Source: an uncultured Pseudomonadota bacterium (GTDB taxonomy: Bacteria; Babelota; Babeliae; Babelales; CAIQNR01). From it: a stretch of 64,000 nucleotides of DNA. Position 1 is the stretch's first letter; each line of letters starts with the position of its first letter. The translations under genes and the position numbers were made by a program. Of this stretch, positions 1,915 through 49,684 are shown in pieces. The DNA lies in assembly GCA_964570505.1 (NCBI GenBank), contig CAZMYL010000001.1, positions 143,501 to 207,500 on the forward strand. Reading direction: 5' to 3'. The notes beneath the pieces were generated by a model that worked only from the letters and a program-made list of their open reading frames with translations, searched no databases and was not told the DNA's origin.

Positions 1915-4900
1915 ATGAAATATTATTTAATAGTAGCTCTTTTGAGTTTATATTCTGATATTCATACCTTTACTGTTACAACTCAATCAAAAACACCAGT
2001 AAATACAACAAATCAATTATCAAATACTTCATCTTCAAATATTGTTGCTCTATCTACAACTTCTTCTGGTTTAAATTCTAATTCTCAAAATAGTTCTACA
2101 CAAAGTGCTCTTACTTTAAATTCTGGTGCTGTAAAAAATAATTCAAAAGTTGTAAAGCAGTGGAGCGTAAAATTAAATGATTCTGATATTCCTAGTTTAT
2201 ATACGAGTCCTGAATTTATAACTGTACAAAAAACTGTGTATCAACTTTCTCAATTGATGAATTCATTGATTGGAAATTTTAAATCAGTTCAACAACAAAA
2301 TAATCAAATTATATGGTCTGTAACCGCTCAATCGTCATCTGATACATTAAAAAATTCGAATCAAAATGCAATAAATTCTCAAGGATTTGATTATGTTAAA
2401 ACATATAGTACTTTTCAGTCTTATATGTCTGGGCAAAGTACCTCTTTTGTAGCTTCTTTTCAAAGTGTTTATACTATTTATCAAAATTTATTTCCCACAT
2501 TTAAAGAGTATATGCAAAGTAGTGGTAAAGAGGTAAGTGCAACATCTCAAGCTTATTTTACTAAGCTGCCATTTCAAAAAGATTCATATACAATTACATT
2601 ATTGCAATCAATAAGTTCTGCAATTATTAAATATTTGACTGCTCGAGCATCGCTTATATCTGTTCAAAATTATATTCAAAATAATGGATCATCAGATCTT
2701 TTTGGTTCATCTGGAGCATTTCAATATGGCGATATAATTATGTCAGCACTTAAAAAATTTATGGACGAAGAATATAAAAAAGTTACTTCTCTTCAAGGAT
2801 TAACAGCTGAAGAAAATGTTGAATTACAATCATATTATAATCTTATTTTTTCTGATTATATAAAACAAAAAAATACCCTTCTTATTCAAACAGTAGTTAA
2901 GCTTTTAAAATCATTATCTTATAAAAATCAAAGTAATCTTGTGAGTATCAATACTAATAATCAGCCTATTGCAACTAATGAATTGGAAATTTTTGTTAAT
3001 AATGCAGTTACCGCTGCTCAGGCTTATAATTCATTGAGCGAAGAAACAATTCAAAATAAATTTTTAGAGTACGATTCAATTGATAATGCATTAATAGAGA
3101 TTCATAGTCTTCTTGCTGATTTGTATTGTTTTAATAGCAAAATTCTTTTATTAAATATAGAAAAATCTGCTCAAGAAAGTGGTGATTTACCTTATTCAAT
3201 TAATGATAAAGATCAAATTCAGTTTCAAACAACTCTGCTTAATGCTTTTTATCTTTTTCAAAAAATGATTTATCAGGCTGCTCAACATGCTTCTTTGGCT
3301 AAAAAATCAGACTTATATACACTTTATAGTGGTCAATCGGCAATGGCAGAAAGTATTATTATTAATTGGCAAAATGGACAATCTTCATATGCAGTTCAAT
3401 CATATTCTAATGCACTATCTTATTTTAATGCTGTTTTAAGCGCTTCTCAAAAATATCAACTTACTTATTGTGTTAATTATATTATTAGCATTATTCAAAA
3501 AATTAATTTGGAGTATGAGCAAACTTTGTTTGGTTTGTATGTACAAAATCCTTCTTATATTTCAGCGCTTTCAACATATATTGATCATGCCTTATCGACT
3601 AATGTATCTACATATGAAGAAGATCAGGCTTTATGGTGTTCAATTTGGTATCCAGATGCTTCTCCTGTTGCGTCTTCCGTAAAAAATTCAAATATCTATC
3701 AAGGTTTTTATTTATTATCAACATCTGCGGTTCAAACAATTCAAAGTATTTTAGCAAGTGCTCAAACTAATCAATTAAAGCTTTCTGAAGAAAAAATTAT
3801 TGATTTGCAATATGCTGTTAAAACATTAAATTTTTTAGTAGCAGGTCTTCAGGAAATGCTTGTTCAAAGTTCTTTGTTTCCAGATAAGCAATCTGCGGAC
3901 GCTAATATGTATGTTAATTATTATACGCCAGCAGGGTATAGAAAGGTTCATACACAATATCAATCTATTATTAATGCTTTTGATGGAATTGATAAAGTTT
4001 ATCAAGAGTCTGCAACTGATACATTGAATTCTTATTGTCCTTTGCAATCTTTATTAGTAAATCAAAAAAATATTTCTAATTTTGGCATGCTTGCTCGTCT
4101 TCATTATGCACGATGGGCTTTTTGTATGGGTATGTATGCAATTAAATATGCATCAAACAAAGATTGTTTAAAAGATAAAACATGTATTGTATATCAAAAT
4201 ACAGCATATCAGTATGCATTATGCGCTCTTGTTGATGCTCAAAATATATACGCAGGTTTGGGGCAAAAAGCTATTGTTAATTATATTGAAGATCAAATTT
4301 TATCTATAAAAATGTATGCATCTGGATTGCTTAATACTGCAGACTTAGTTGTATCATCAGAAAATTCAAATATGTCAGATACCTCATGGTATGATGCATT
4401 ATATTATACACAAGTTGCTGCAGCAGTAGATTCTTCAGTATATGGTAATGAATATATTAAAAGGCTTGAAGATCTAATTAAAAAAGAAACTTCTAATATT
4501 TTTAAAAGAACGATTCCCGATATTTATAAAGCATATCTTCTTTACCAAGGGTATATTTGGGCTTTATTTATTAATGATAATCTTTTAAAAAATAGTTATG
4601 CATCGCAACTACAAAAAACTCTTGATGCATCTGTGATTGCTGTTAATGCTTTACAGAATCAGTCACAATCAAAAGATAATAGTTTGTTGAATATTGAAAA
4701 AATCAAAGAATTGCAAAAAATTCAGAATATTTTAGAAATTTTTGCTGTAAATCAGAACTATCAAAAAGGTATTTTTATCACGAGCGGAAATGATTTTATT
4801 ACTATTGCTGAAAATAAAGTGGTTGGAAGTTCTATTTTAAATAAAAAAATAACATTTTTTGGCGGTTCTACTCTCTTTTTATCCAATATAGATTATAGCT

Positions 4901-7374
4901 TAGCACAGCTTTATGTAAGTCAGGCAAATACAATCCTTCTTCAAATTCAAGATTATTTTAATGGTAAAGAGTATGATAAAATTACTGATGATTTGTTTCT
5001 TAAAATGATTGGTTATTATAACAATGCAATAGAAAATTATAGTAAATTAGGCCTTTCAAATAATGTAATTTCTACAAGTAAATTAGTAAGTCAGGCGATG
5101 GCTTTTTATTTTTATAGTTTAATAATTCCATCTGATTCTGTTACATCAGCAATTGATGCTCTTATGAAATCAAGTAGCTCAACTGCTGTTAAAAAAACAG
5201 GTTTAATTATAAAAAATATGGGATCTTTTGTTAAAGATGAAAATAAAAATTTTATGAATCAATCTTTATATATTTTACGTTATGCACAACAAGATTTACA
5301 AAATTTTAAAGAAATTGCAGATGAAAATGTTGCGAATTTTCAAAAACAAACTGACTCAAGTTTGTTAAATAATGCTTTAGAACAACAAAAATTTTATGTA
5401 AAAATGATAGAAGTTGCAAAAGGATTTGTAGGTTCGCAGGATTATAAAGGAATTCTTAAAGAGTTAGTAATTCCTTTGTATAAATCAACATTAGTAAATT
5501 CTGGATATAAACATATTTTTAAAACGATTGATAATGAAGTTCAGGATTATGCAGGACAAATAGAGATGCTGATAGATAAAGGAATATCTATTGGTGGCAC
5601 AATTTTAAAAACAAAATTTGTAGTAGATCAGCAAAAAAATACTGATGGGTCTGTTTCGCTTATATTAAAATCATATAATATTCCAACTTCTGCAGTTCCT
5701 CAATTTACAGGGGATATTATGAGTGCTTTGGTTGTTTATACGCAATATCAAAATTTTTTTCAGCAAACAGCTCAGCCTGTGCAAACAAGTAGTGGTGTTT
5801 TTTCTGCTATTCCAGATCAAAATTCATATAAAAAAGCTCAATATTTAATAAATGAAACTTATATTTCTGCAGCAAATAGTTACAATAATAAATTGTTAAA
5901 ACTTATTGATCCTTTAAAAAATATTCAAAATAAAACAGAAAAAAGATTTGATGATTATGCAGCAAGTTATTCTTTGGTGAATGATATATATCAAGAAATT
6001 TTTGCTTATTATTCTGTTCTTGATCAGGTTCAAAAAGCAACGAGTATAATTTCTTATGATGTTTCTGGACTCTATGTGAAAAAATTTCAAGCATATAGTG
6101 AAGATTTGCAATATTTCTTGATAGGTGATCCTTCTTCTCCTGACTATATTAAACGAGTTATAGAATCTGCTATGGCATATTTGTTGATATCAAATTATAC
6201 ATCAGATACTACTACGTGGAGTCAAATGCATAAAAAAGCTGGAGATCTTTATAAAAAAACAGCTGATTTAGCTTATACTTATACTATTTCTGCTCCATCT
6301 TATAATGGATATCCAAGTAAATCTGCTCATAATTTTCCAAAAAAAGGCGATTCTTTTAAGGTTCCATCATCATTAATATGTGAAAATTTTGTAGCATCTG
6401 CAGATCCATCGTCACCAATTATTTTTTATGCGTATCAAGATGCTCAAGGGTATTATCAGCAAGCTTTACAAAACTACCGCCAGTCATATGCATTGTTACG
6501 CAATAATCAATCAAAAGGAGAAATGACTGATTCATCAATTATGACTTGTTGGTCTTTGTATCTTATAGCTGGAATTAAAAATGCAATTCAGCGTATAGGA
6601 TTATTTTCCAGAAATGCTTTTGAACCAATTGGAACTTCAATATTGTGTGATTTTTCTAGTGATTTTATTAAGTTGCAATCTGAAGGTAAAAATAATGGAT
6701 TTTCATCTGCGCAACAAGGGTATTCTTCGTTAGCAGGAATGGGAAATCAGTTAACAAATAATTATGTAGGCAAACAGTATGCTATTATGAAAAAATTATT
6801 AATTGATTCATTAATTTATCTTTCTGGTGCAATTAATATTTGTAATTCGTTATCTAAATCTTTGGGAATTTCAACGGCTACAATTGTTGATAAAAAACTT
6901 GGAGCATCATATTTCTGTGCTCTCGCTCGTTATTTTCCTACATTAACTTGTATGACAGGATCGGATCTTTCAGGATTGCTGCTTTCAAAATATATATCAA
7001 ATCCAGCAGGGCTTTCGATTTCAGCAGATTTAAATATACAACAACAATATGCATTTTTATATTCAGATAGTTTTATTCAAACTCATGATTATATAATTAA
7101 TTCGTTATGTGGTAATCAAACTACAATGTCTACCAAAATGAAAATGCCAGAAAATGTTGTAGCTATGGCAAGTTACATATCGCAACTTTTTGGAATGGTG
7201 CGTACGGTCTATGCAAATGCATTTTTACCGGAATTGGTAAAGGCGGTTGATGATGCTGGTGCAACTGGCAAACCTGTAGCTTCTGCTGTTTCTGCATTAC
7301 AACAAAGTATTAATACAGATGTCACAACAGCTCAACAAAATATGTTAATAGATTCATCAGGATACGTTGGTTGA
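1915..7374 (+). CDS. giant exported protein, 1819 aa, no recognisable domain
   Basis: 5.46-kb uninterrupted ORF starting 35 nt after the previous gene. Signal-peptide-like MKYYLIVALLSLYSDIHTF is followed by an S/T/N/Q-rich ~60-residue linker and then a Q/N/S/Y/A-rich body. No catalytic or repeat motif seen. Confidence 0.8.
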   Translation: MKYYLIVALLSLYSDIHTFTVTTQSKTPVNTTNQLSNTSSSNIVALSTTSSGLNSNSQNSSTQSALTLNSGAVKNNSKVVKQWSVKLNDSDIPSLYTSPEFITVQKTVYQLSQLMNSLIGNFKSVQQQNNQIIWSVTAQSSSDTLKNSNQNAINSQGFDYVKTYSTFQSYMSGQSTSFVASFQSVYTIYQNLFPTFKEYMQSSGKEVSATSQAYFTKLPFQKDSYTITLLQSISSAIIKYLTARASLISVQNYIQNNGSSDLFGSSGAFQYGDIIMSALKKFMDEEYKKVTSLQGLTAEENVELQSYYNLIFSDYIKQKNTLLIQTVVKLLKSLSYKNQSNLVSINTNNQPIATNELEIFVNNAVTAAQAYNSLSEETIQNKFLEYDSIDNALIEIHSLLADLYCFNSKILLLNIEKSAQESGDLPYSINDKDQIQFQTTLLNAFYLFQKMIYQAAQHASLAKKSDLYTLYSGQSAMAESIIINWQNGQSSYAVQSYSNALSYFNAVLSASQKYQLTYCVNYIISIIQKINLEYEQTLFGLYVQNPSYISALSTYIDHALSTNVSTYEEDQALWCSIWYPDASPVASSVKNSNIYQGFYLLSTSAVQTIQSILASAQTNQLKLSEEKIIDLQYAVKTLNFLVAGLQEMLVQSSLFPDKQSADANMYVNYYTPAGYRKVHTQYQSIINAFDGIDKVYQESATDTLNSYCPLQSLLVNQKNISNFGMLARLHYARWAFCMGMYAIKYASNKDCLKDKTCIVYQNTAYQYALCALVDAQNIYAGLGQKAIVNYIEDQILSIKMYASGLLNTADLVVSSENSNMSDTSWYDALYYTQVAAAVDSSVYGNEYIKRLEDLIKKETSNIFKRTIPDIYKAYLLYQGYIWALFINDNLLKNSYASQLQKTLDASVIAVNALQNQSQSKDNSLLNIEKIKELQKIQNILEIFAVNQNYQKGIFITSGNDFITIAENKVVGSSILNKKITFFGGSTLFLSNIDYSLAQLYVSQANTILLQIQDYFNGKEYDKITDDLFLKMIGYYNNAIENYSKLGLSNNVISTSKLVSQAMAFYFYSLIIPSDSVTSAIDALMKSSSSTAVKKTGLIIKNMGSFVKDENKNFMNQSLYILRYAQQDLQNFKEIADENVANFQKQTDSSLLNNALEQQKFYVKMIEVAKGFVGSQDYKGILKELVIPLYKSTLVNSGYKHIFKTIDNEVQDYAGQIEMLIDKGISIGGTILKTKFVVDQQKNTDGSVSLILKSYNIPTSAVPQFTGDIMSALVVYTQYQNFFQQTAQPVQTSSGVFSAIPDQNSYKKAQYLINETYISAANSYNNKLLKLIDPLKNIQNKTEKRFDDYAASYSLVNDIYQEIFAYYSVLDQVQKATSIISYDVSGLYVKKFQAYSEDLQYFLIGDPSSPDYIKRVIESAMAYLLISNYTSDTTTWSQMHKKAGDLYKKTADLAYTYTISAPSYNGYPSKSAHNFPKKGDSFKVPSSLICENFVASADPSSPIIFYAYQDAQGYYQQALQNYRQSYALLRNNQSKGEMTDSSIMTCWSLYLIAGIKNAIQRIGLFSRNAFEPIGTSILCDFSSDFIKLQSEGKNNGFSSAQQGYSSLAGMGNQLTNNYVGKQYAIMKKLLIDSLIYLSGAINICNSLSKSLGISTATIVDKKLGASYFCALARYFPTLTCMTGSDLSGLLLSKYISNPAGLSISADLNIQQQYAFLYSDSFIQTHDYIINSLCGNQTTMSTKMKMPENVVAMASYISQLFGMVRTVYANAFLPELVKAVDDAGATGKPVASAVSALQQSINTDVTTAQQNMLIDSSGYVG

Positions 7375-40059: not shown

Positions 40060-40982
40060 TATTGCTGCTTTCTTTTGATCATATTTTTAATAGGGTGTAA
40101 CGTATCGCATATCGTAGTTAATTCTTCTAATGAAATATGTGTGTATTTTTCTGTACTAGATAAGCTTTGATGTCCTAAAAGTTCTTGTACTGATCGTAAG
40201 TCGACACCAGCATTAAGTAAATGTGTAGCAAAAGAATGTCTGATTTTATGAGGAGTAATTATTTTTTTTATTGGTAAAAAGGTTCCAAACATCCCAATAA
40301 TACGTTGTATAGAACGGGGGTCTAAAGGTTCGTTTCTGCAATTTACAAATAATTTTTCTGAAAGAGAATGGCTTTTAGGGCGTTCGTGTTTAAGGTATTC
40401 AAGCATTTTTTCGTGTGCTTTTGACCCAAAAAGAACAATACGTTCTTTTCTTCCTTTTCCCATAATTCGAATGATTTTATTGTTAAAATCTATATTGCCA
40501 ATACTAATATTACAAAGTTCTGAGCAGCGGATTCCTGTTGCATAGAGCACTTCAAAGATTGCTTTGTCTCTTAAAGGTCTTTGAGTGGGAAGATCTTCAT
40601 TTTTTATAGTGTCAAGTAGGTAAAAGATTTCATCAACACTTAAATAAGTAGGTAATTTTTTATCTATTCTTGGTCGTTGTACATTAAGTTGTAAATTAAC
40701 ATCGATTGATTTTAAAAATTTTTTAAGAGAAGTGAAGGATGAAATTTTTCTTGCAACAGAATTTTTATCAATTTTTTTATTAAATAATTGAATGAAGTAT
40801 CGTTCAATTATTTGTGTAAAATTAAAATCTTTTTTTTCTGTATAATTAACTGTGTTCCAAAATGTTATAAATAATTTAAAATCACTATTATATGATCTGC
40901 AAGTGTTTTTACTAAGATTTTTTTCTATTTCTATATAGGTTAAAAAATCATCCGAATATTTTTGAAATTCAATAATTGTCAT
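40059..40982 (-). CDS. tyrosine recombinase XerC/XerD family
   Basis: 307 aa with an N-terminal SAM-like domain. Catalytic residues are present in ATGIRCSEL, HKIRHSFATHLL and LGHQSLSSTEKYTH. Its stop overlaps the mrdA start by 1 nt. Confidence 0.8.
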   Translation of the reverse strand: MTIIEFQKYSDDFLTYIEIEKNLSKNTCRSYNSDFKLFITFWNTVNYTEKKDFNFTQIIERYFIQLFNKKIDKNSVARKISSFTSLKKFLKSIDVNLQLNVQRPRIDKKLPTYLSVDEIFYLLDTIKNEDLPTQRPLRDKAIFEVLYATGIRCSELCNISIGNIDFNNKIIRIMGKGRKERIVLFGSKAHEKMLEYLKHERPKSHSLSEKLFVNCRNEPLDPRSIQRIIGMFGTFLPIKKIITPHKIRHSFATHLLNAGVDLRSVQELLGHQSLSSTEKYTHISLEELTTICDTLHPIKNMIKRKQQ

Positions 40983-41054
40983 ATACTTTTATCTCATACA
41001 TAAAATATTTATAAAGTATATAAGGGTATAACAGGTTCTTATTGCCTGCAAATT

Positions 41055-43802
41055 TTATAAAATTCCATAATCTTTGCATCTTCGATGAATGGAAGATCTA
41101 TTAACTCCAAGAAACAGTGCAATTTTATTTTGATTTTTAAATTTATTCCATAGCATTGCCATTATCATTGGATCTTTTAAGGCATGTTTTCCTAAGCGTG
41201 CAGCCTCTGCTAGTTTTGGATCAGAAATATTGTATGCAGCATCAAAGGTAGTTTCTTCATAAACATCCATTTTTTTTGATTTTGCAAGTAATAAATTTTT
41301 AATATTTTCTTTTATGTCATATAAACTTGCAGGACGCTGAGAAATTAATATTTCACGATCTTTTTCTGAAAGTGTTAATAATTTATTAGTTGGATTTTCT
41401 GCGTTAAGTGATTGTTCTGTAAAGTTTTCTATGAGTGTATTAATTTCATTAGTAGGTAATGTTAATAAAGTTGGAAGAGTTAATGATGTATTTCGTAGTT
41501 CTTTTAATAACATTTCTGAAAAAAGGCCTTCTTTTACAAGATGTTCTAAATTTTGATTAGTAGAGCATATAATTCTTACTTCACTAAACATTTTACGTTC
41601 AGTTTTTAGAATTTTATAAAATCCATAGCGTATGAATGTTGCAAGATTGTTTTGAGATTCTAAATCTAAAAAATGAATATTTTTTATAAAAAGTGTTCCT
41701 TTCTTATTTAATTTTTCAAGAAGAGGTTCTTTTGCAGATTCTGTTAAAGAGTTTATTGCAAAAAGTTGATTAATTCCAAATAAAGAAATTCCTATTTCTT
41801 TAGATGTAATTGGTGCTTGTAAATTTAGGATATGTAAATTTTCTTTAAGAGATATGTGATGGATAAGTTCAACCATAGAAATAATATCCTTTTCAGGAAT
41901 ATTAATAAGAAGTGCTTTTTTTGTAAGAGCTACTTTTAAAAGTTCTATTTTAAAATTTAGTAAAGTAGAACCATTTCCTGGGATTAAATTATTAATGAGT
42001 TTCCCTGATTCTGTTGTTTCTAAGTATAATAAATAATCCCAATTGCTAGGATTATTTATATGATCTATGAGTTCTTCTACAATATCGGAAAGTTCTGGAT
42101 AATAAACAGTAAAGATAACACTTGTATTTTCTGGGTGAGGAATTCCTGATATAACAAATCGTTTGTTATAAATATTTTTTGTAAACTGTAATTGAGGGCC
42201 CTTGTATTTTTCTATTTTTTCGGCCATTTCAAGTAATAATTTTGTAGTTGGATCACCTTTTTCTTTATTTGGATTGATTCCTAATATTTTATTTGCATCT
42301 TCATTGGCAAATGAAAATATTTTATTTTTATAAAGTATAATTCCTATAGAATTGCCTTTATTTATTTTTATAAATGATTGAAGGCTTTCTTTATATCGAG
42401 TAATTTCTTGGTGTTTTGTATAAAGTTCTTCAGTGATTTCTTTTCGTTCTTTAAGAAGCTCATTTAAATTTCTATTTTGTAGTAAATTTACAATTTTTGC
42501 TGCGTAAGTTGTAAAAATAATCATTTCATCACGTTCAATATTTGTATAGAATTTTTTTCTTCCAGAATTTTTATTAATGATGATATAGCCAATAATTCTA
42601 TCTTGATCATACATTGGTAAAAATACATCAGCATTAATATCATTTAAAAAAGTTAATAAACGTTGTGTAAAATTACTTGGTTCATGAAAATGGGTGTATG
42701 CAATTTCATCGTAAATAAGAATTTGAATAAGGTTTTCTGAATTATTTGATTGAGAAAGTATTTCAAAGTTTGCTTGAGTTATAAAATTTTCAATAGTTGT
42801 TTGTAGCAAGTTATGTTGTTTATAAAAATAATCTTTTTCTGTTGAATGAGGAGTAAAGATAATTTTTAGGTTTATTTTTTGTTGATCGATTTTAAAAGCT
42901 TTGTTGAAAAATTGCTGGGAAAGAATTTTTATTTCTGTGATGTTTGTTATTTGTCCAAGTTCTTCTAACACTATTTTAAAATCATAAAGAAAATTAAATC
43001 TTTTTGAATCATATACATGACTATGTACATTTAAAAATCTAAGTCCAATAATAGTTTTAAAAAAATAAAAAAGAGCAAAAGCTAAGAATATTTCAGAAAG
43101 AATAAGGCCTTCTGTGTGAAAAGAAAATGTATTTATTATAGGAAATACTTGCCAAATATTTGCAAGTAAAATTGGAATTAAAAAATAAACAATACATGTT
43201 TTTACTTGTTCAGATAAAATTTTAGGTAATGGCTCTGATTGTATTATTGAAATACCTTCAATAATGGCATATGGCATTAGAACTAAAAGATTATAACGTA
43301 CAATAAAAGTAATAATTTTATATTTTGTAAGATAATTTATTAAATCAACAAATCCATTGTCTTGAAAAAAAGCATAAATAATAAAGATTAATAATGGTAT
43401 CAGGAATAAATTGGTGATAATAAAAAAAATAAGATTAAGATTCTTCTTTAGATTTGTTTTTTCATTGATTTTGAAAGATTGTATAAAAAGTATAAAGCTA
43501 TAATACATAATAAGATAAGTTGCATATCCAATACAAATAATTCCCATAGTAAAATTTTGACTTGGAAATTTAAAATTTTTGTAACATATATACGAAAACC
43601 ACGTTAAATTTTCTATTAAAGAAGTTATAATAATTATAAGTAAAGTGATTGCTGGAGCTTTATTTTTTGATAATTGTGAAATTTTTCTTAAAAAAGGAAA
43701 AAATAATGCTATTTTAAATATAATTAAAGACGCTTCAATCCATAACATGACATAATGGTTGTTTAAAAAATTTGTTAATATTGTTAAAAAATTATATATC
43801 AT
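41055..43802 (-). CDS. membrane-anchored sensor/regulator: multi-TM N-domain, GAF-like and PAS-like domains, a degenerate sigma-54-activator AAA+ module and a Fis-type HTH
   Basis: 915 aa with about 8 TM helices in the first ~270 aa. GAF-like ...FLPMYDQDRIIGYIIINKNSGRKKFYTNIERDEMIIFTTYAAKIV. Residues ~628-800 align with NtrC-type AAA+ domains, but the Walker A, Walker B and GAFTGA motifs are replaced. The C-terminal HTH_8-like sequence is IALFLGVNRSSIHRRCKDYGI. Confidence 0.65.
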   Translation of the reverse strand: MIYNFLTILTNFLNNHYVMLWIEASLIIFKIALFFPFLRKISQLSKNKAPAITLLIIIITSLIENLTWFSYICYKNFKFPSQNFTMGIICIGYATYLIMYYSFILFIQSFKINEKTNLKKNLNLIFFIITNLFLIPLLIFIIYAFFQDNGFVDLINYLTKYKIITFIVRYNLLVLMPYAIIEGISIIQSEPLPKILSEQVKTCIVYFLIPILLANIWQVFPIINTFSFHTEGLILSEIFLAFALFYFFKTIIGLRFLNVHSHVYDSKRFNFLYDFKIVLEELGQITNITEIKILSQQFFNKAFKIDQQKINLKIIFTPHSTEKDYFYKQHNLLQTTIENFITQANFEILSQSNNSENLIQILIYDEIAYTHFHEPSNFTQRLLTFLNDINADVFLPMYDQDRIIGYIIINKNSGRKKFYTNIERDEMIIFTTYAAKIVNLLQNRNLNELLKERKEITEELYTKHQEITRYKESLQSFIKINKGNSIGIILYKNKIFSFANEDANKILGINPNKEKGDPTTKLLLEMAEKIEKYKGPQLQFTKNIYNKRFVISGIPHPENTSVIFTVYYPELSDIVEELIDHINNPSNWDYLLYLETTESGKLINNLIPGNGSTLLNFKIELLKVALTKKALLINIPEKDIISMVELIHHISLKENLHILNLQAPITSKEIGISLFGINQLFAINSLTESAKEPLLEKLNKKGTLFIKNIHFLDLESQNNLATFIRYGFYKILKTERKMFSEVRIICSTNQNLEHLVKEGLFSEMLLKELRNTSLTLPTLLTLPTNEINTLIENFTEQSLNAENPTNKLLTLSEKDREILISQRPASLYDIKENIKNLLLAKSKKMDVYEETTFDAAYNISDPKLAEAARLGKHALKDPMIMAMLWNKFKNQNKIALFLGVNRSSIHRRCKDYGIL

Positions 43803-43906
43803 GAAATTTTCTATTTATTTTAAACGTTTTACGTAATTGACTTTTATACAAATATACTTACATTATTGTAATAATATTTACAAAAACAGCAAAGCTAAGA
43901 GGTTTT

Positions 43907-43990
43907 ATGAAAAAAAGTGTTTCATTGTTGTTCTTATTTTTAATTATTACAATAATTTATTCATTTACACCCCCAACTCCTCCTTATTGA
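43907..43990 (+). CDS. possible 27-aa hydrophobic mini-ORF
   Basis: SD AAGAGG lies 5 nt before the ATG. The product is MKKSVSLLFLFLIITIIYSFTPPTPPY*. It may be a small membrane peptide or a relic signal-peptide exon. Not in the ORF track. Confidence 0.25.
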   Translation: MKKSVSLLFLFLIITIIYSFTPPTPPY

Positions 43991-44053
43991 TTTATTAAGT
44001 TTTAGTTTCATGATTTGGCGATTGTTTTAAGTTGCATCTATATTGAAAATATC

Positions 44054-44728
44054 ATGAAATACAGTGTTGATCCATCAATTTCTTTTGAGGTTGTTTTAAA
44101 AAAACTTAGATCGGAGACTCTTTCTATGTCTGAGCCGATCTCTTTTTTTTTAATTGAGCGCTTTGGTAGGGATCCTTATATTGTTCTTGTAAGTTGTATT
44201 TTAAGTTTAAGGACCAAGGATAAGATAACTTTAGAAGCTAGTTTGAGGCTTTTTAGTATTGCAAAAACGCCTCACGATATGGTTTTAATACCACTTCAAG
44301 TTTTGGAAAAATTAATTTATCCCGTAGGTTTTTATCGTCGCAAAGCTGAGCACATTCAAAAAATAAATAAAATTCTAATAGAAGTTTATGGCGGGCAGGT
44401 GCCAAATCTTAAAGAACTCCTCTTAAATTTGCCTGGGGTTGGCATAAAAACAGCAAATCTTGTACTTGGATTGGGTTTTAAAATTCCTGCTTTATGTGTT
44501 GATATTCATGTTCATAGAATTGCAAATAGATTAGGATTGGTTTATACCAAAAACCCTGAACAAACAGAGCAAGCTCTTATGAAAATTTTTCCTAAAGAGC
44601 ATTGGATAGAGCTTAATAGGCTTCTTGTTATGTGGGGGCAAAATATATGTACTCCTCTATCTCCTTATTGCTCAAAATGTATAATTTCTTCTTTATGTAA
44701 AAAAAATAGTGTTTTAAAACAAAGATAA
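44054..44728 (+). CDS. nth: endonuclease III (HhH-GPD DNA glycosylase with a 4Fe-4S cluster)
   Basis: HhH LPGVGIKTANLVL, a catalytic-region VDIHVHRI and a cluster loop CTPLSPYCSKCIISSLC. ATG at 44054 (the track begins at TTG 44015). Confidence 0.8.
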   Translation: MKYSVDPSISFEVVLKKLRSETLSMSEPISFFLIERFGRDPYIVLVSCILSLRTKDKITLEASLRLFSIAKTPHDMVLIPLQVLEKLIYPVGFYRRKAEHIQKINKILIEVYGGQVPNLKELLLNLPGVGIKTANLVLGLGFKIPALCVDIHVHRIANRLGLVYTKNPEQTEQALMKIFPKEHWIELNRLLVMWGQNICTPLSPYCSKCIISSLCKKNSVLKQR

Positions 44729-44782
44729 TAAGCTTAATGGGATTAATGCCAATTTTTATTTTGAGCTTATTTTCTGTGCTAA

Positions 44783-44810
44783 TTGACGATTTAGTGCTAT
44801 TTGATATACT
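44783..44810 (+). promoter_or_regulatory. strong sigma-70-type promoter candidate for the secreted-protein cluster
   Basis: TTGACG, a 16-nt spacer ending in TGA, then TATACT (extended -10 form TGATATACT), about 60 nt upstream of the 44872 start. Confidence 0.5.
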
Positions 44811-44871
44811 ATTAGTATGTTTAGAAGTTGCTTAAATAGCTGATAATAAGATTATGAGTAAAGGATTTATT

Positions 44872-45369
44872 ATGAAATTTAATCTTAGAAAAACTAAAAA
44901 AGTGATGTTCTTATGGAGTTCTTTGTTTGGAGTAAGTCTTCAGGCTCAGGTAGAAAATAAATTAACGGTGACAACAGATGTTGCTGTTGAAGTGGTGGAA
45001 AGTGTTGCTGAAGGTAATGCAGATTCAGTGACCGTCGTTGAAATTGATAAAAATGTAGTTATAGAATCAGAAGATTCTGTGATTAATGAAGAAAGCAGTT
45101 CTCTTGTATGTGCTCATTCCTTAGAAGAATTGGCAAATATAATCAATATTGGTGCGATTTCGACATTTGATCAGTTTACGATTGTTGCTAAAAACTTCCC
45201 AGAGCTTGTTGAAGCTGCAGCTGCTTTTAAAAAAGCAGGTGTTTTAACAAATGCTATGGTTCTTTTGCAATTTAAGTCATTAAAAAATCAAAAAGCAAAA
45301 GATTTTATGATGTCTTTGTTTTTGAAAATTAAAAATAAAAACAATCTGTGGACAATTATTAAAAACTAA
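44872..45369 (+). CDS. hypothetical exported protein, about 165 aa
   Basis: The ATG preceded by AAAGGA gives MKFNLRKTKKVMFLWSSLFGVSLQAQ (signal-like). An acidic V/E/S-rich segment is followed by a helical C-terminal half. The track start is 44854. Confidence 0.55.
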   Translation: MKFNLRKTKKVMFLWSSLFGVSLQAQVENKLTVTTDVAVEVVESVAEGNADSVTVVEIDKNVVIESEDSVINEESSSLVCAHSLEELANIINIGAISTFDQFTIVAKNFPELVEAAAAFKKAGVLTNAMVLLQFKSLKNQKAKDFMMSLFLKIKNKNNLWTIIKN

Positions 45370-45394
45370 TATGTATAGAAAGATGGGGTTATCT

Positions 45395-46114
45395 ATGAAA
45401 AAATTTTTATTGTTATTATGCGTTTCGCTTTGCGCAACCCGTGTTTACTGTGCTCCCACTGATGATAAATATAGTTGGCTTACAAGGCTTGGTATGTTTT
45501 TAAGAAATAGTCCTCAGCAAATTTTGACACAGTTAAAACAAGAAAATTTGTATACTGATTTATGGCTAGAAGAATTACCTGCTCCAGAAGGTATCGTATA
45601 TAGAGTATATCGTATTATTAAGGTAAGTAATGAATTGTCGATAGCTTTTCATGTAGGAAATATATTTATTGGCGATGATGGTATTAGTGTTCGTACTGAG
45701 ACTTTTGGGGGACAAGTATTAGATCATGCTCAGCAAGCCGAAGTAGATTGTGAAACAATTATAAGGTGTATTGCATGGAATCGTCCTCCGCAGCAATTTA
45801 TTGAATTTTTGAGGAAAGTTTTTTCTAAAGAATTAGATAGTAAAACAATGACAGAGATTCAAAAGCAATTGTATAATATAAAAAACCCTGAGGAGAGCAA
45901 AGGATTTGTTTTTACGCAAAACAAAAGGTGTAACTCAATTATTGATGAAGAATTAGCTCAAGCTGCTCAATGTGGGCAACGGATGATGGTTAGAGTCGCT
46001 GCAAAGGCTGCAGCTCTTTATGGATTGTATTCTTTAAGAAATGAAATTGCTACAGGTGTTAAAAATGGTACTTCATCTCTTGTGGCTGCAGTTGCAAGTG
46101 GACTAGGTAAGTAA
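45395..46114 (+). CDS. secreted/tail-anchored paralogue 1 of a three-gene tandem family
   Basis: MKKFLLLLCVSLCATRVYCA signal peptide. The C-terminus ...AALYGLYSLRNEIATGVKNGTSSLVAAVASGLGK is shared with the next two genes, and the middle is divergent. The track start is 45371. Confidence 0.7.
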   Translation: MKKFLLLLCVSLCATRVYCAPTDDKYSWLTRLGMFLRNSPQQILTQLKQENLYTDLWLEELPAPEGIVYRVYRIIKVSNELSIAFHVGNIFIGDDGISVRTETFGGQVLDHAQQAEVDCETIIRCIAWNRPPQQFIEFLRKVFSKELDSKTMTEIQKQLYNIKNPEESKGFVFTQNKRCNSIIDEELAQAAQCGQRMMVRVAAKAAALYGLYSLRNEIATGVKNGTSSLVAAVASGLGK

Positions 46115-46139
46115 TGATATATGGCTTAAGAGGTTATCT

Positions 46140-46880
46140 GTGAAGAAATTTTTATTGTTAGTATGTATTTTTGTTTGTGCAACTCGTGTTTACTGTGCTG
46201 CCACTGATGATAAATATGGTTGGTTTACAAGGCTTGGTATGTACTTAACAAAGAGTCCTCAGCGAATTGCGAAAGAGTTAAGAAAACAACGTTTGTATAC
46301 TCATTTATTGATAAAAAAATCTTCCGAAAATTCTGAATATCCAAGAAAATCTAATGGTTATCATTTATATCATTTTTTTGAAAATAGTAATGTTGGTATA
46401 TCGAAAAGAATGATAGTTGAACAATATGGTACTGTTGATGTTGAAGAATCTTCTGGGTTCTATATCGTTAACCCTAAAGAATTTCAAGAAAATTCTAGCT
46501 TAATAATATCTACTATTGCGCTGTATTATCCTCAGAAATTTATTAGTTTTTTGAGAGAAGTTTTTTCTGAAAAAGATTCTACTTTAGACGACTTCTCTAA
46601 AAGCAACAGTTGGGCTGAAATCTGTCGGAAAAAGAAAATAGATACGCTTGATTATAGTGCACAGCAACAGATTATTAGTGAAAATAATAAAAAGTGTAAC
46701 TCAATTATTGATAAAGAATTGTCTCGAGCTACTCAATGTGGAGTTGCTGCAACGGTTGGAGTTGCTGCAGCGGGTGCAGCACTTTATGGATTGTATTTTT
46801 TAAGAAATGAAATTGCTACAGGTGTTAAAAATGGTACTTCATCTCTTGTGGCTGCAGTTGCAAGTGGACTAGGTAAGTAA
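46140..46880 (+). CDS. secreted/tail-anchored paralogue 2
   Basis: GTG start 6 nt after SD AAGAGG. MKKFLLLVCIFVCATRVYCA signal peptide and a Gly/Ala-rich hydrophobic C-terminal segment. Identical to paralogue 3. Confidence 0.7.
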   Translation: MKKFLLLVCIFVCATRVYCAATDDKYGWFTRLGMYLTKSPQRIAKELRKQRLYTHLLIKKSSENSEYPRKSNGYHLYHFFENSNVGISKRMIVEQYGTVDVEESSGFYIVNPKEFQENSSLIISTIALYYPQKFISFLREVFSEKDSTLDDFSKSNSWAEICRKKKIDTLDYSAQQQIISENNKKCNSIIDKELSRATQCGVAATVGVAAAGAALYGLYFLRNEIATGVKNGTSSLVAAVASGLGK

Positions 46881-46905
46881 TGATATATGGCTTAAGAGGT
46901 TATCT

Positions 46906-47646
46906 GTGAAGAAATTTTTATTGTTAGTATGTATTTTTGTTTGTGCAACTCGTGTTTACTGTGCTGCCACTGATGATAAATATGGTTGGTTTACAAGGCT
47001 TGGTATGTACTTAACAAAGAGTCCTCAGCGAATTGCGAAAGAGTTAAGAAAACAACGTTTGTATACTCATTTATTGATAAAAAAATCTTCCGAAAATTCT
47101 GAATATCCAAGAAAATCTAATGGTTATCATTTATATCATTTTTTTGAAAATAGTAATGTTGGTATATCGAAAAGAATGATAGTTGAACAATATGGTACTG
47201 TTGATGTTGAAGAATCTTCTGGGTTCTATATCGTTAACCCTAAAGAATTTCAAGAAAATTCTAGCTTAATAATATCTACTATTGCGCTGTATTATCCTCA
47301 GAAATTTATTAGTTTTTTGAGAGAAGTTTTTTCTGAAAAAGATTCTACTTTAGACGACTTCTCTAAAAGCAACAGTTGGGCTGAAATCTGTCGGAAAAAG
47401 AAAATAGATACGCTTGATTATAGTGCACAGCAACAGATTATTAGTGAAAATAATAAAAAGTGTAACTCAATTATTGATAAAGAATTGTCTCGAGCTACTC
47501 AATGTGGAGTTGCTGCAACGGTTGGAGTTGCTGCAGCGGGTGCAGCACTTTATGGATTGTATTTTTTAAGAAATGAAATTGCTACAGGTGTTAAAAATGG
47601 TACTTCATCTCTTGTGGCTGCAGTTGCAAGTGGACTAGGTAAGTAA
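46906..47646 (+). CDS. secreted/tail-anchored paralogue 3 (identical copy of paralogue 2)
   Basis: Identical 246-aa translation and, as far as I can read, identical nucleotides at a 766-nt offset. Confidence 0.7.
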   Translation: MKKFLLLVCIFVCATRVYCAATDDKYGWFTRLGMYLTKSPQRIAKELRKQRLYTHLLIKKSSENSEYPRKSNGYHLYHFFENSNVGISKRMIVEQYGTVDVEESSGFYIVNPKEFQENSSLIISTIALYYPQKFISFLREVFSEKDSTLDDFSKSNSWAEICRKKKIDTLDYSAQQQIISENNKKCNSIIDKELSRATQCGVAATVGVAAAGAALYGLYFLRNEIATGVKNGTSSLVAAVASGLGK

Positions 47647-47833
47647 TGATATATGGCTTAAATGCCTTTTTTTGTAAAATATTTTTAAAGTGAGTTTTTT
47701 TGCATTGTGATTTTTGACATTGTAAGAAGCTCGCTTTTTGATTAATTGCCGATTTTTGCCATTTCTATATACTCTTTCTGAGGTTATATACATAAAAAAT
47801 TATTAAGATGTTTGAGTAAGGGTGATAAGGGAT

Positions 47834-49684
47834 ATGAAAACAGAATATTCATATGACGTTATTGTAGTTGGAGCGGGGCATGCAGGCGTAGAAGCTGCTT
47901 ATGCTGCTGCGCGTCGAGGTTCAAGGACTGTTCTTATTACTCTTGAAAAAGATAAAATTGGATATATGCCTTGCAATCCTGCAGTTGGGGGTATTGGCAA
48001 AGGGCATATTGTTTTTGAAATTAGTGCGCTTGGCGGTCTTATGCCAAAATTATGCACAAGAACTTATTTGCAGGTCCGTATGCTCAATACAAGTAAAGGT
48101 CCTGCTGTGCATGGGCTTCGTCTTCAAATTGACAAAAATGCGTATAGTAAAGCTGCTCAGGAAGAGCTTTTTGCTACAGAAAATCTTACTATTATTGAAG
48201 GCATGGTGGAAGATGTTCTTGTTAATGAAAAATCCCAAGTTGTTGGTGTCAAGTTGGCTCATGATACAATTATTACAGCTCCATGTGTAGTTCTTACAAC
48301 AGGAACATTTTTAAATGGATTAGTTCATGTTGGATTGCATAATTATGCTTCAGGAAGAGAAGATGAAGAACCAGCTGTTAATTTATCACATTCTCTTAGA
48401 AAATTAGGATTAGTGCTTGGTAGGTTAAAAACTGGAACACCTCCTCGGTTACTTGCATCAAGTATTGATTTTAGTCGTCTTGAAAAACAGCAATCAGATA
48501 ATTTAGATTATCTTTTTGAATTTTATCCTCATACTACAACTACAAAAAGAGATTGTTATATTACGCATACTAATGAAAAAGTTCATCAAATTATAAAAGA
48601 CAATGCGCATCTTTCTCCTATTTTACGAAAAGAAATAACAGGTACAGGTCCTCGTTATTGCCCATCTATTGAAGATAAAATAACTCGATTTCCTCATAAG
48701 GCAGCGCACCAAATTTTTGTAGAACCAGAAAGTCTTTCAACTGAATGGATTTATCCTAATGGTCTTTCAACTTCATTGCCGCTTGAAGTTCAAAAACAGT
48801 ATATTAATGCAATTAAAGGATTTGAAAACGCTATTATTGTTCGAGCTGGTTACGCTATTGAATACGATATGGTGCTTCCAAATCAATTAAAAACAACATT
48901 AGAAGCTAAGAATATAGAAGGACTTTTTTTGGCTGGTCAAATAAATGGTACAACAGGCTATGAAGAAGCCGCTGGTCAAGGTATTATTGCGGGAATTAAT
49001 GCTTCTTTAAAGGCAGATAAAAAGCCTCCCTTTGTATTAAGTAGAAGTGAAAGTTATATAGGTATTATGATTGATGATTTAACAACATTAAGCATAGACG
49101 AGCCGTATAGAATGTTTACTTCAAGAGCAGAACATAGATTGTTGTTGCGTCAAGATAATTCATTTTTAAGATTAACGGAAAAAGCGTATCAAGTAGGTCT
49201 TATTGATGAAGTTTTATATAAAGATTTTAAGCAAGAACAAGATATTATTATAAGTACCATTAAAGAACTTCGTTCTGGAAATAATACAACAGATTTATTA
49301 CGTCTTTTTGGTGATAATACAGGTGCATGTAAAGCAGTTGCAGAAACAACAGGTAAGATATTAGGGGAAAGGCCTGCTCAAACGGTACAAGCAGAAATAA
49401 AATATGCTCCTTACATAGAGCGAGAAAGCTTAGAAGTAGAGCGACTTAAAAAACATCAAGCTATGAAAATTCCTGATAATTTTGAATTCATGGGAATGGA
49501 AGGATTGTCTACAGAATTACAGCAAAAATTAACAAAAATAAAACCAGCAACAATTGCTCAGGCAGGTCTTATTCCGGGAATGACGCCGGCAGCTCTTTCG
49601 CTGCTTATGTTAAAAATAAATATTTATAATAGACCTAAAAGCGTTTATATACCCTATAGTAAATCTGAAGCAAAGGAAGATTGA
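47834..49684 (+). CDS. mnmG: tRNA uridine 5-carboxymethylaminomethyl modification enzyme MnmG (GidA)
   Basis: FAD motif YDVIVVGAGHAGVEAA, GQINGTTGYEEAA and full-length GidA architecture. A TTGCCG-16-TATACT promoter candidate lies at 47746-47773. Confidence 0.9.
   Translation: MKTEYSYDVIVVGAGHAGVEAAYAAARRGSRTVLITLEKDKIGYMPCNPAVGGIGKGHIVFEISALGGLMPKLCTRTYLQVRMLNTSKGPAVHGLRLQIDKNAYSKAAQEELFATENLTIIEGMVEDVLVNEKSQVVGVKLAHDTIITAPCVVLTTGTFLNGLVHVGLHNYASGREDEEPAVNLSHSLRKLGLVLGRLKTGTPPRLLASSIDFSRLEKQQSDNLDYLFEFYPHTTTTKRDCYITHTNEKVHQIIKDNAHLSPILRKEITGTGPRYCPSIEDKITRFPHKAAHQIFVEPESLSTEWIYPNGLSTSLPLEVQKQYINAIKGFENAIIVRAGYAIEYDMVLPNQLKTTLEAKNIEGLFLAGQINGTTGYEEAAGQGIIAGINASLKADKKPPFVLSRSESYIGIMIDDLTTLSIDEPYRMFTSRAEHRLLLRQDNSFLRLTEKAYQVGLIDEVLYKDFKQEQDIIISTIKELRSGNNTTDLLRLFGDNTGACKAVAETTGKILGERPAQTVQAEIKYAPYIERESLEVERLKKHQAMKIPDNFEFMGMEGLSTELQQKLTKIKPATIAQAGLIPGMTPAALSLLMLKINIYNRPKSVYIPYSKSEAKED

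Follow-up and report, generated by a model that had tools for sequence, protein, structure and literature searches.

A tandem array of probably exported orphan paralogues with signs of recombination at their ends in a Babeliales bacterium

How do neighbouring genes come to share identical ends around centres that can hardly be aligned, and does such a pattern mark a programmed system of surface variation or the more ordinary outcome of recombination between tandem copies? The question is raised by three adjacent genes, here called A, B1 and B2, in a 64,000-nucleotide stretch of contig CAZMYL010000001.1 (assembly GCA_964570505.1; the whole 64-kb stretch is referred to below as the window), from an organism that its sequences place among the Babeliales. 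We consider it probable that all three are genuine genes and belong to a lineage-specific, Sec-exported orphan family, arranged in tandem and shaped by recombination, in an obligately intracellular bacterium that infects protists. The protein family is new, no relative having been found among billions of sequences, and the kind of feature is already a familiar one: the recent duplication and the apparently homogenised ends are real and tidy, and fairly ordinary for such organisms.

Conserved ends and a perfect duplication

The genes and repeats that make up the array are as follows, with lengths given in amino acids (aa), nucleotides (nt) or base pairs (bp) and open reading frames abbreviated as ORFs.

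45395..46114, forward strand: gene A, the diverged paralogue, 239 aa (from the ORF list; alternative upstream ATGs at 45371 and 45383)
46140..46880, forward strand: gene B1, 246 aa, GTG start (from the ORF list; AAGAGG ribosome-binding site at 46128-46133; product identical to database protein P0001)
46906..47646, forward strand: gene B2, identical to B1 (from the ORF list and the repeat comparison)
46033..47661, forward strand: perfect tandem repeat with a period of 766 nt and 2.13 units (46033-46895 equals 46799-47661, with 0 mismatches over the 863-nt overlap)
46033-46129, 46799-46895 and 47565-47661, forward strand: 3' module M, 97 nt, in three identical copies (from the exact-repeat scan)
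45387-45575, 46132-46320 and 46898-47086, forward strand: 5' module in three copies (repeat family D2)

The ORFs of A and B are real, as they run for about 240 codons in a genome with a guanine-cytosine (GC) content of 30% (the value for the window) and all insertions and deletions between them are in frame. Their products share 47% identity (BLASTP, E = 7e-61), which bears out the original prediction that the upstream gene is a diverged paralogue. That prediction had let the locus begin at 45371, a position that marks no more than the earliest ATG of the ORF; 45395 is homologous to the GTG of B, is preceded by the shared GGTTATCT and most likely represents the start of A, judged from this alignment. 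Both B genes carry AAGAGG 6 nt upstream of their GTG and encode the same 246-aa protein, just as had been proposed from the letters alone.

The duplication itself is perfect. Positions 46033-46798 and 46799-47564 agree without a mismatch, and at an offset of 766 the identity continues to 47661, again in line with the earlier description. What bounds the repeat unit is module M, consisting of the last 27 codons, the stop codon and 15 nt of spacer, which is found at the end of all three genes. The last 27 codons of A and the 25-nt spacer behind them were also said to be identical to their counterparts in the B copies; this holds for the codons and for 15-25 nt of the spacer, of which just the first 15 nt remain downstream of B2. 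At the other end, the 5' module spans the signal peptide together with 8 nt of leader in front of it and the first ~40 residues of the mature protein behind it, and here A and B agree at 83% of nucleotides. Beyond these identities within the array, the scan for exact repeats of at least 20 nt returned nothing further touching the triplet region. Module M is the likely substrate of unequal crossing-over.

Divergence between A and B is distributed in a strongly uneven manner along the gene. Counted per aligned block of 30 nt, the differences number 5, 5, 3, 4, 8, 6, 19, 11, 16, 16, 19, 14, 11, 4, 14, 23, 17, 3, 13, 7, 1, 0 and 0. The maximum chi-square for recombination between A and B was 48.9, a value reached in 0 of 1000 permutations, the longest identical run measured 79 nt (0 of 2000 permutations), and the variance among blocks likewise lay beyond every permutation (1000-2000 range). 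Synonymous (dS) and nonsynonymous (dN) divergence, estimated by the Nei-Gojobori method on the A/B codon alignment, resolves this pattern into the following segments.

Codons 1-20, signal peptide: dS 0.46, dN 0.13, dN/dS 0.28
Codons 21-58, start of the mature protein: dS 0.046, dN 0.243, with 19 nonsynonymous to 1 synonymous difference
Centre: dS from 0.77 to saturated, dN 0.8-0.9
Two islands: dS 0.42-0.46
Last 27 codons: dS 0, with the adjoining spacer identical as well

Outside the tail and codons 21-58, dS thus ranges from 0.35 to saturation. None of the 22 synonymous sites of the tail differs, which has a probability of 7e-4 or less when calculated at the lowest proportion of synonymous differences found elsewhere in the gene, and in codons 21-58 at most one of 22 differs (P = 7e-3 to 1e-5). 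As a scale, orthologues of this genome and of the related metagenome-assembled genome (MAG) L002 show a dS of 0.67-1.03. Against this baseline, and because selection on a protein cannot erase synonymous or non-coding differences, the values near zero at the ends argue that the end modules were exchanged by gene conversion or crossing-over long after the centres had diverged. The original prediction of a mosaic with exchange at the paralogue ends is thereby supported. The 19:1 ratio, in addition, hints at diversifying selection just behind the signal peptide.

Together, these observations can be arranged in two steps. Both ends of A and B, the 3' end above all, would have been homogenised, by gene conversion or crossing-over, when the centre was already saturated. 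Sister chromosomes would then have undergone unequal homologous recombination between the 97-nt M module of A and that of B, duplicating the 766-bp unit, giving A-B-B (written with the modules, A-M-B-M-B-M) and leaving the borders of the duplication hidden inside M. One unequal exchange between M modules 766 bp apart would be the most economical mechanism. Both steps appear very recent, because no substitution is found in the 863-nt overlap, and it is a reasonable inference that the 97-nt triple repeat makes the copy number unstable. The array thus offers a clean, datable example, with three age layers in 2.3 kb and a collinear sister genome in which it is missing, and it is a candidate for marking very recent changes in Babeliales genomes.

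Products and family

Both proteins begin with MKK, followed by an 11-residue hydrophobic core (FLLLVCIFVCA in B, FLLLLCVSLCA in A) and then VYCA. Their N-termini reach maxima of 3.0-3.5 on a 10-residue Kyte-Doolittle window, the highest class among the ORFs of the window, and combine a basic n-region with a hydrophobic h-region of ~10-15 residues, as expected of a Sec type I signal. A Sec-type signal peptide, which had been proposed for all three genes, is hence plausible by sequence. Cleavage would probably take place near VYC/A, which places V at -3 and C at -1 in accordance with the cleavage rule, whereas the alternative YCA/A would place Y at -3 and does not fit.

The C-terminal part is less uniform than had been described. 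In B, a Gly/Ala-rich helix (residues 200-221) scores 1.4-1.67 on a 19-residue Kyte-Doolittle window and is thus borderline for a transmembrane segment, whereas the aligned helix of A has a basic residue at each of i, i+4 and i+8 (R195, R199 and K203), all on one helical face, and stays below 1.2. The Gly/Ala-rich hydrophobic segment ascribed to all three proteins is accordingly retained for B, at the borderline, and given up for A. The helix could be membrane-like in B and basic-amphipathic in A, and may insert into the membrane or lie on it. Behind it follows an invariant tail of 24 residues. Upstream, two conserved cysteines 14 residues apart (C186/C200 in B, C179/C193 in A; CNSIIDxEL....QCG) suggest a disulfide formed in an oxidising compartment, and a low-confidence structure model weakly indicates that the C-terminal half is largely helical.

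Several known classes of envelope or secreted protein were considered and set aside. A C-terminal membrane anchor common to all members fails for copy A, where the Kyte-Doolittle score never exceeds 1.2. A bacterial lipoprotein is excluded by the residues in front of the three cysteines of B (L-L-V/C, I-F-V/C and R-V-Y/C), none of which fits the lipobox [LVI][ASTVI][GAS]C. A bilobed domain like that of chlamydial Inc proteins would call for a second hydrophobic lobe, and in neither A nor B does any 19-residue window beyond the first C-terminal helix exceed 1.2; A lacks the first lobe too. Likewise, C-terminal sorting signals of the PEP-CTERM, MYXO-CTERM and GlyGly-CTERM kind, which place a motif, a transmembrane helix and a basic cluster at the extreme C-terminus, gave no NCBIfam match at E-values up to 1, and 25 residues lie beyond the helix.

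A and B constitute an orphan family specific to one Babeliales lineage. A word-indexed search of 5.8 billion proteins matched the A and B sequences alone, both from one 229.5 kb NCBI contig, and an exhaustive HMMER search with an A+B profile against 1.84 billion representatives returned the same two sequences and nothing else. Scanning genome, metagenome and viral contigs by pattern revealed no further family member, and the invariant tail, written as a degenerate DNA pattern, had no match in metagenomes. The original prediction had recognised no known domain, and none emerged from the databases: the best Pfam match was Acyltransf_C (E = 0.012, 15.9 bits against a cut-off of 26.5), the best values in PHROGs and among PDB sequences were E = 0.018 and E = 0.8, respectively, none of them significant, and NCBIfam gave no match. 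Within the window, tblastn and blastn detected no further copy or fragment, and the triplet is the sole paralogous set among its 48 larger ORFs. One protein of L002 (P0003) is present in the protein collection; if the L002 proteome is covered as this suggests, there is no detectable A/B homologue anywhere in it.

The products would be exported to the periplasm, the envelope or a host-facing surface, and it is their variable centre that would be free to change. An envelope or host-facing role, the default for this phylum, seems most likely.

Position of the array in the genome

The assignment of the host comes from the downstream gene mnmG, whose product is 91% identical to MnmG of L002, a MAG named 'Candidatus Babeliales bacterium', and 87% identical to that of L001, an uncultured bin (VK2_bin-0242), all other matches reaching at most 47%. 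By this measure the organism is a member of the Babeliales, which lie within Candidatus Babelota, also called Dependentiae or TM6; every known member of this phylum is an intracellular parasite of protists (PMC12172432; PMC4776705). For 21 kb, L002 keeps the order of the window, with a nucleotide identity of 83-86%, and the triplet is the sole interruption of this collinearity: 36454-45370 matches L002 947-9812 and 47803-57957 matches L002 9971-20129, the two L002 blocks being 158 bp apart. Three further features describe the site.

45371..47677, forward strand: segment of this genome that the collinear L002 lacks (from about 47678 the intergenic sequences align again)
44872..45369, forward strand: gene U, a conserved, fast-evolving exported protein of 165 aa (ATG at 44872; the ORF opens at 44854)
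47687..47740, forward strand: hairpin followed by a run of U residues, a probable intrinsic terminator of U-A-B1-B2 (found by folding and missed by the simple terminator scan)

Gene U lies directly 5' of the triplet, and its orthologues, with an aa identity of 55% in L002 and 35% in L001, occupy the corresponding position there. With four members among the 5.8 billion proteins it is itself a near-orphan. Compared with L002:9314-9811, gene U (44872-45369) shows a dN of 0.36 at 55% aa identity, set against a dN of 0.05 and 91% for MnmG at similar dS.

Between the stop codon of U and gene A, the terminator scan returned no terminator-like site; the single site that it placed inside A (45998-46014) is a weak match within coding sequence. 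Downstream of B2, a folding energy of -20.3 kcal/mol (z = -4.8) was obtained for the 66 nt at 47680-47745. In L002 a strong hairpin (z = -8) directly follows U at the same position, between the common flanks AAATATTTTTAAA ... TTTTTGATT. A hairpin in the same slot between conserved flanks implies that the array sits between the stop codon of U and U's ancestral terminator, and U-A-B1-B2 would thus form a single transcription unit, the array being co-transcribed with U. The stem sequences at 47687-47740 and L002:9847-9899 are wholly different, i.e., the stem has turned over and the structure has been kept. Rfam gave no match over 43500-48500, and no tRNA was found at the borders.

In L001, the slot between the U homologue and mnmG holds different content than here. 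At L001:6023-10000 a pair of paralogues with signal peptides (233 and 246 aa, ~50-67% identical and mosaic) flanks a 515-aa gene with AAA-ATPase-like and PDDEXK_9 parts, and a fragment of the same arrangement was found in an independent sample (L058:3132-3839). The U-mnmG slot therefore varies among relatives and has the look of a hot spot for exported paralogues specific to single lineages. The occupants are unrelated in sequence, as hhalign gave A/B a probability of 0.3% against the L001 slot paralogues, and of 0.2% against gene U.

Independent evidence for the left border comes from a Logan contig (L057, run SRR16481186), which was found through the 165-aa sequence of gene U and is base-for-base identical to positions 40285-45469 of the window, which include the U-A junction and 5.2 kb upstream. 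The contig stops at 45469, inside the 5' module of A and short of the repeat, and no exact repeat of at least 20 nt in the window accounts for this break, which could reflect low coverage or sequence heterogeneity in the population.

Alternative explanations and comparison with known systems

Several points weigh against the reading of a recently duplicated, recombination-shaped family of exported orphans. The B-B junction and the copy number are those given by the assembly, and either gain of the array here or its loss in L002 would fit, because the slot of the outgroup L001 differs in content. Export of A and B was judged from hydropathy profiles and by rules of thumb. From the alignment of the two sequences, AlphaFold2 yielded an unusable model (predicted local distance difference test, pLDDT, 36; predicted template modelling score, pTM, 0.26), and a pLDDT of 36 backs neither a fold nor a function. 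The nonsynonymous excess in codons 21-58 is just suggestive (one-sided P = 0.075), and the central A/B alignment is too poor to separate non-homologous replacement from extreme divergence.

There is a small but appreciable chance that the assembly created the second B copy or miscounted the copies, with the locus really being A-B, holding more than two B copies or varying within a mixed population. Short-read assemblers are unable to count structures such as a perfect repeat of 766 bp with zero differences, and the source contig, 229.5 kb long, is of the metagenome type. The Logan assembly breaks in gene A, before the repeat, and module M (97 nt) also exceeds the presumed Logan k-mer size. Yet assemblers tend to collapse tandem repeats, not to expand them. 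With k below 97, the de Bruijn graphs of A-B and A-B-B would be identical and the shortest path would contain one B; an assembler that gives two copies would normally have had junction or coverage evidence. The three-fold 97-nt module, moreover, provides a natural mechanism for a true duplication. Improbable, in our view, is an arrival of the whole triplet by recent horizontal transfer, as a small islet from an unsampled donor. Its presence here and absence at the same place in the collinear L002 would fit, and the unrelated genes in the L001 slot, including an AAA-ATPase-like/PD-(D/E)XK gene, suggest an insertion hot spot. Against a transfer, the borders of the array carry no integrase, transposase, tRNA or flanking repeats, codon usage and GC content of A and B are typical of the genes in the window, no donor homologue was found anywhere, and A and B have had time for their centres to diverge to saturation. 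Uneven purifying selection alone, with vital ends and a free centre and without recombination, is a highly improbable source of the mosaic. The conserved parts (signal peptide with its dN/dS of 0.28, the FLRxVFS island, CNSIID...QCG and the tail) are plausible functional elements, but the tail has no synonymous difference, the 15-25 nt of spacer are identical, and the dS of 0.046 in codons 21-58 contrasts with 0.35 to saturation elsewhere; an RNA element acting at the nucleotide level across 46033-46139, which could rescue an explanation by selection only, was not found by Rfam.

Cassette systems of antigenic variation, e.g., pilE/pilS of Neisseria, vlsE of Borrelia and msp2 of Anaplasma, place a hypervariable centre between conserved flanks, and do so in exported proteins of bacteria that live in association with a host; A and B resemble them in all of these respects. 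A programmed antigenic- or phase-variation locus, in which cassettes would be exchanged into an expression site and copy number would act as a contingency switch, is nonetheless decidedly improbable. Besides the conserved ends around the variable centre, it would be favoured by the nonsynonymous excess in codons 21-58, by the exported look of the product and by an organism that is an intracellular parasite. However, a donor reservoir is missing: the window holds no other copy or fragment, all databases together contain two distinct proteins only, and no other member is recorded, even though the proteins of the source contig, A and B among them, are in the database. Furthermore, all three genes are complete with their own ribosome-binding site, none is a silent cassette, there is no dedicated expression site, and the alleles number only two. 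The cassette exchange that had originally been envisaged is not supported, given the lack of a donor pool in the 64-kb window and in the protein and contig collections, which leaves A and B as the only possible partners of an exchange. The further proposal of a variable surface or host-interaction family suits the organism and loses its force as a distinguishing feature, since ~20 of the 48 larger ORFs of the window are alike in this property. A smaller contingency system, in which the end modules of A and B recombine and reshuffle centres and copy number within the population, thereby varying an exposed protein under diversifying selection, retains a slim chance; if it were true, the break of the Logan contig at 45469 inside the 5' module would reflect allelic heterogeneity in the sample. 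A target of a diversity-generating retroelement, in which variable and template repeats differ at adenines, was rejected, as all four bases take part in the 26 codon differences of the 5' module and no template-like third copy was seen, reverse transcriptase not having been specifically scanned for nearby.

Concerted evolution of tandem paralogues is a general phenomenon in bacteria, known from the tuf genes and from tandem families of surface proteins, and the array shares its pattern: identical segments in diverged neighbours, a duplication unit bounded by an identical segment, and uneven synonymous divergence. Unlike these cases, conversion between A and B is confined to the two ends, the centre is saturated and only two alleles exist.

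Within its own phylum, the array can be compared with the exported orphans of Dependentiae. In the cultured Chromulinavorax destructans, of the same order, 44% of coding sequences have signal peptides, and this set is enriched in orphan ORFs (PMC6561590); exported orphans are typical of this phylum. A and B resemble these orphans: they are short, begin with a signal peptide, contain no recognisable domain and lack homologues in other lineages. They differ from them in standing in tandem, with one perfect duplication and with ends homogenised by conversion, and such an array was not found described for the phylum in PMC6561590 or PMC4776705. The array illustrates how exported proteins may be gained and diversified in such parasites. 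An analogue by position is the pair in the L001 slot (signal peptide MKKxLVVLTSLLVCGVQG), which likewise lies between a U homologue and mnmG, has no Pfam domain and is a mosaic of long identical blocks and variable stretches. In contrast to A and B, to which it bears no sequence relation, this pair lies on the opposite strand, flanks the AAA-ATPase-like/PDDEXK_9 gene and has no C-terminal hydrophobic helix.

Across the window, ~20 of the 48 ORFs of at least 100 aa (~42%) are signal-peptide-like by a crude rule, many with MKK and a Leu/Ile-rich stretch, which is close to the 44% of C. destructans. Among the other ORFs, 1915-7374 on the forward strand encodes 1819 aa with a signal-peptide-like N-terminus. 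On the reverse strand, 41055-43802 encodes a 915-aa protein (88% identity in L002) whose N-terminal half is long and very hydrophobic and whose C-terminal part is a sigma-54-interaction (AAA+) domain with an end resembling a helix-turn-helix; as read from its sequence, this is an unusual membrane-embedded form of enhancer-binding-protein architecture.

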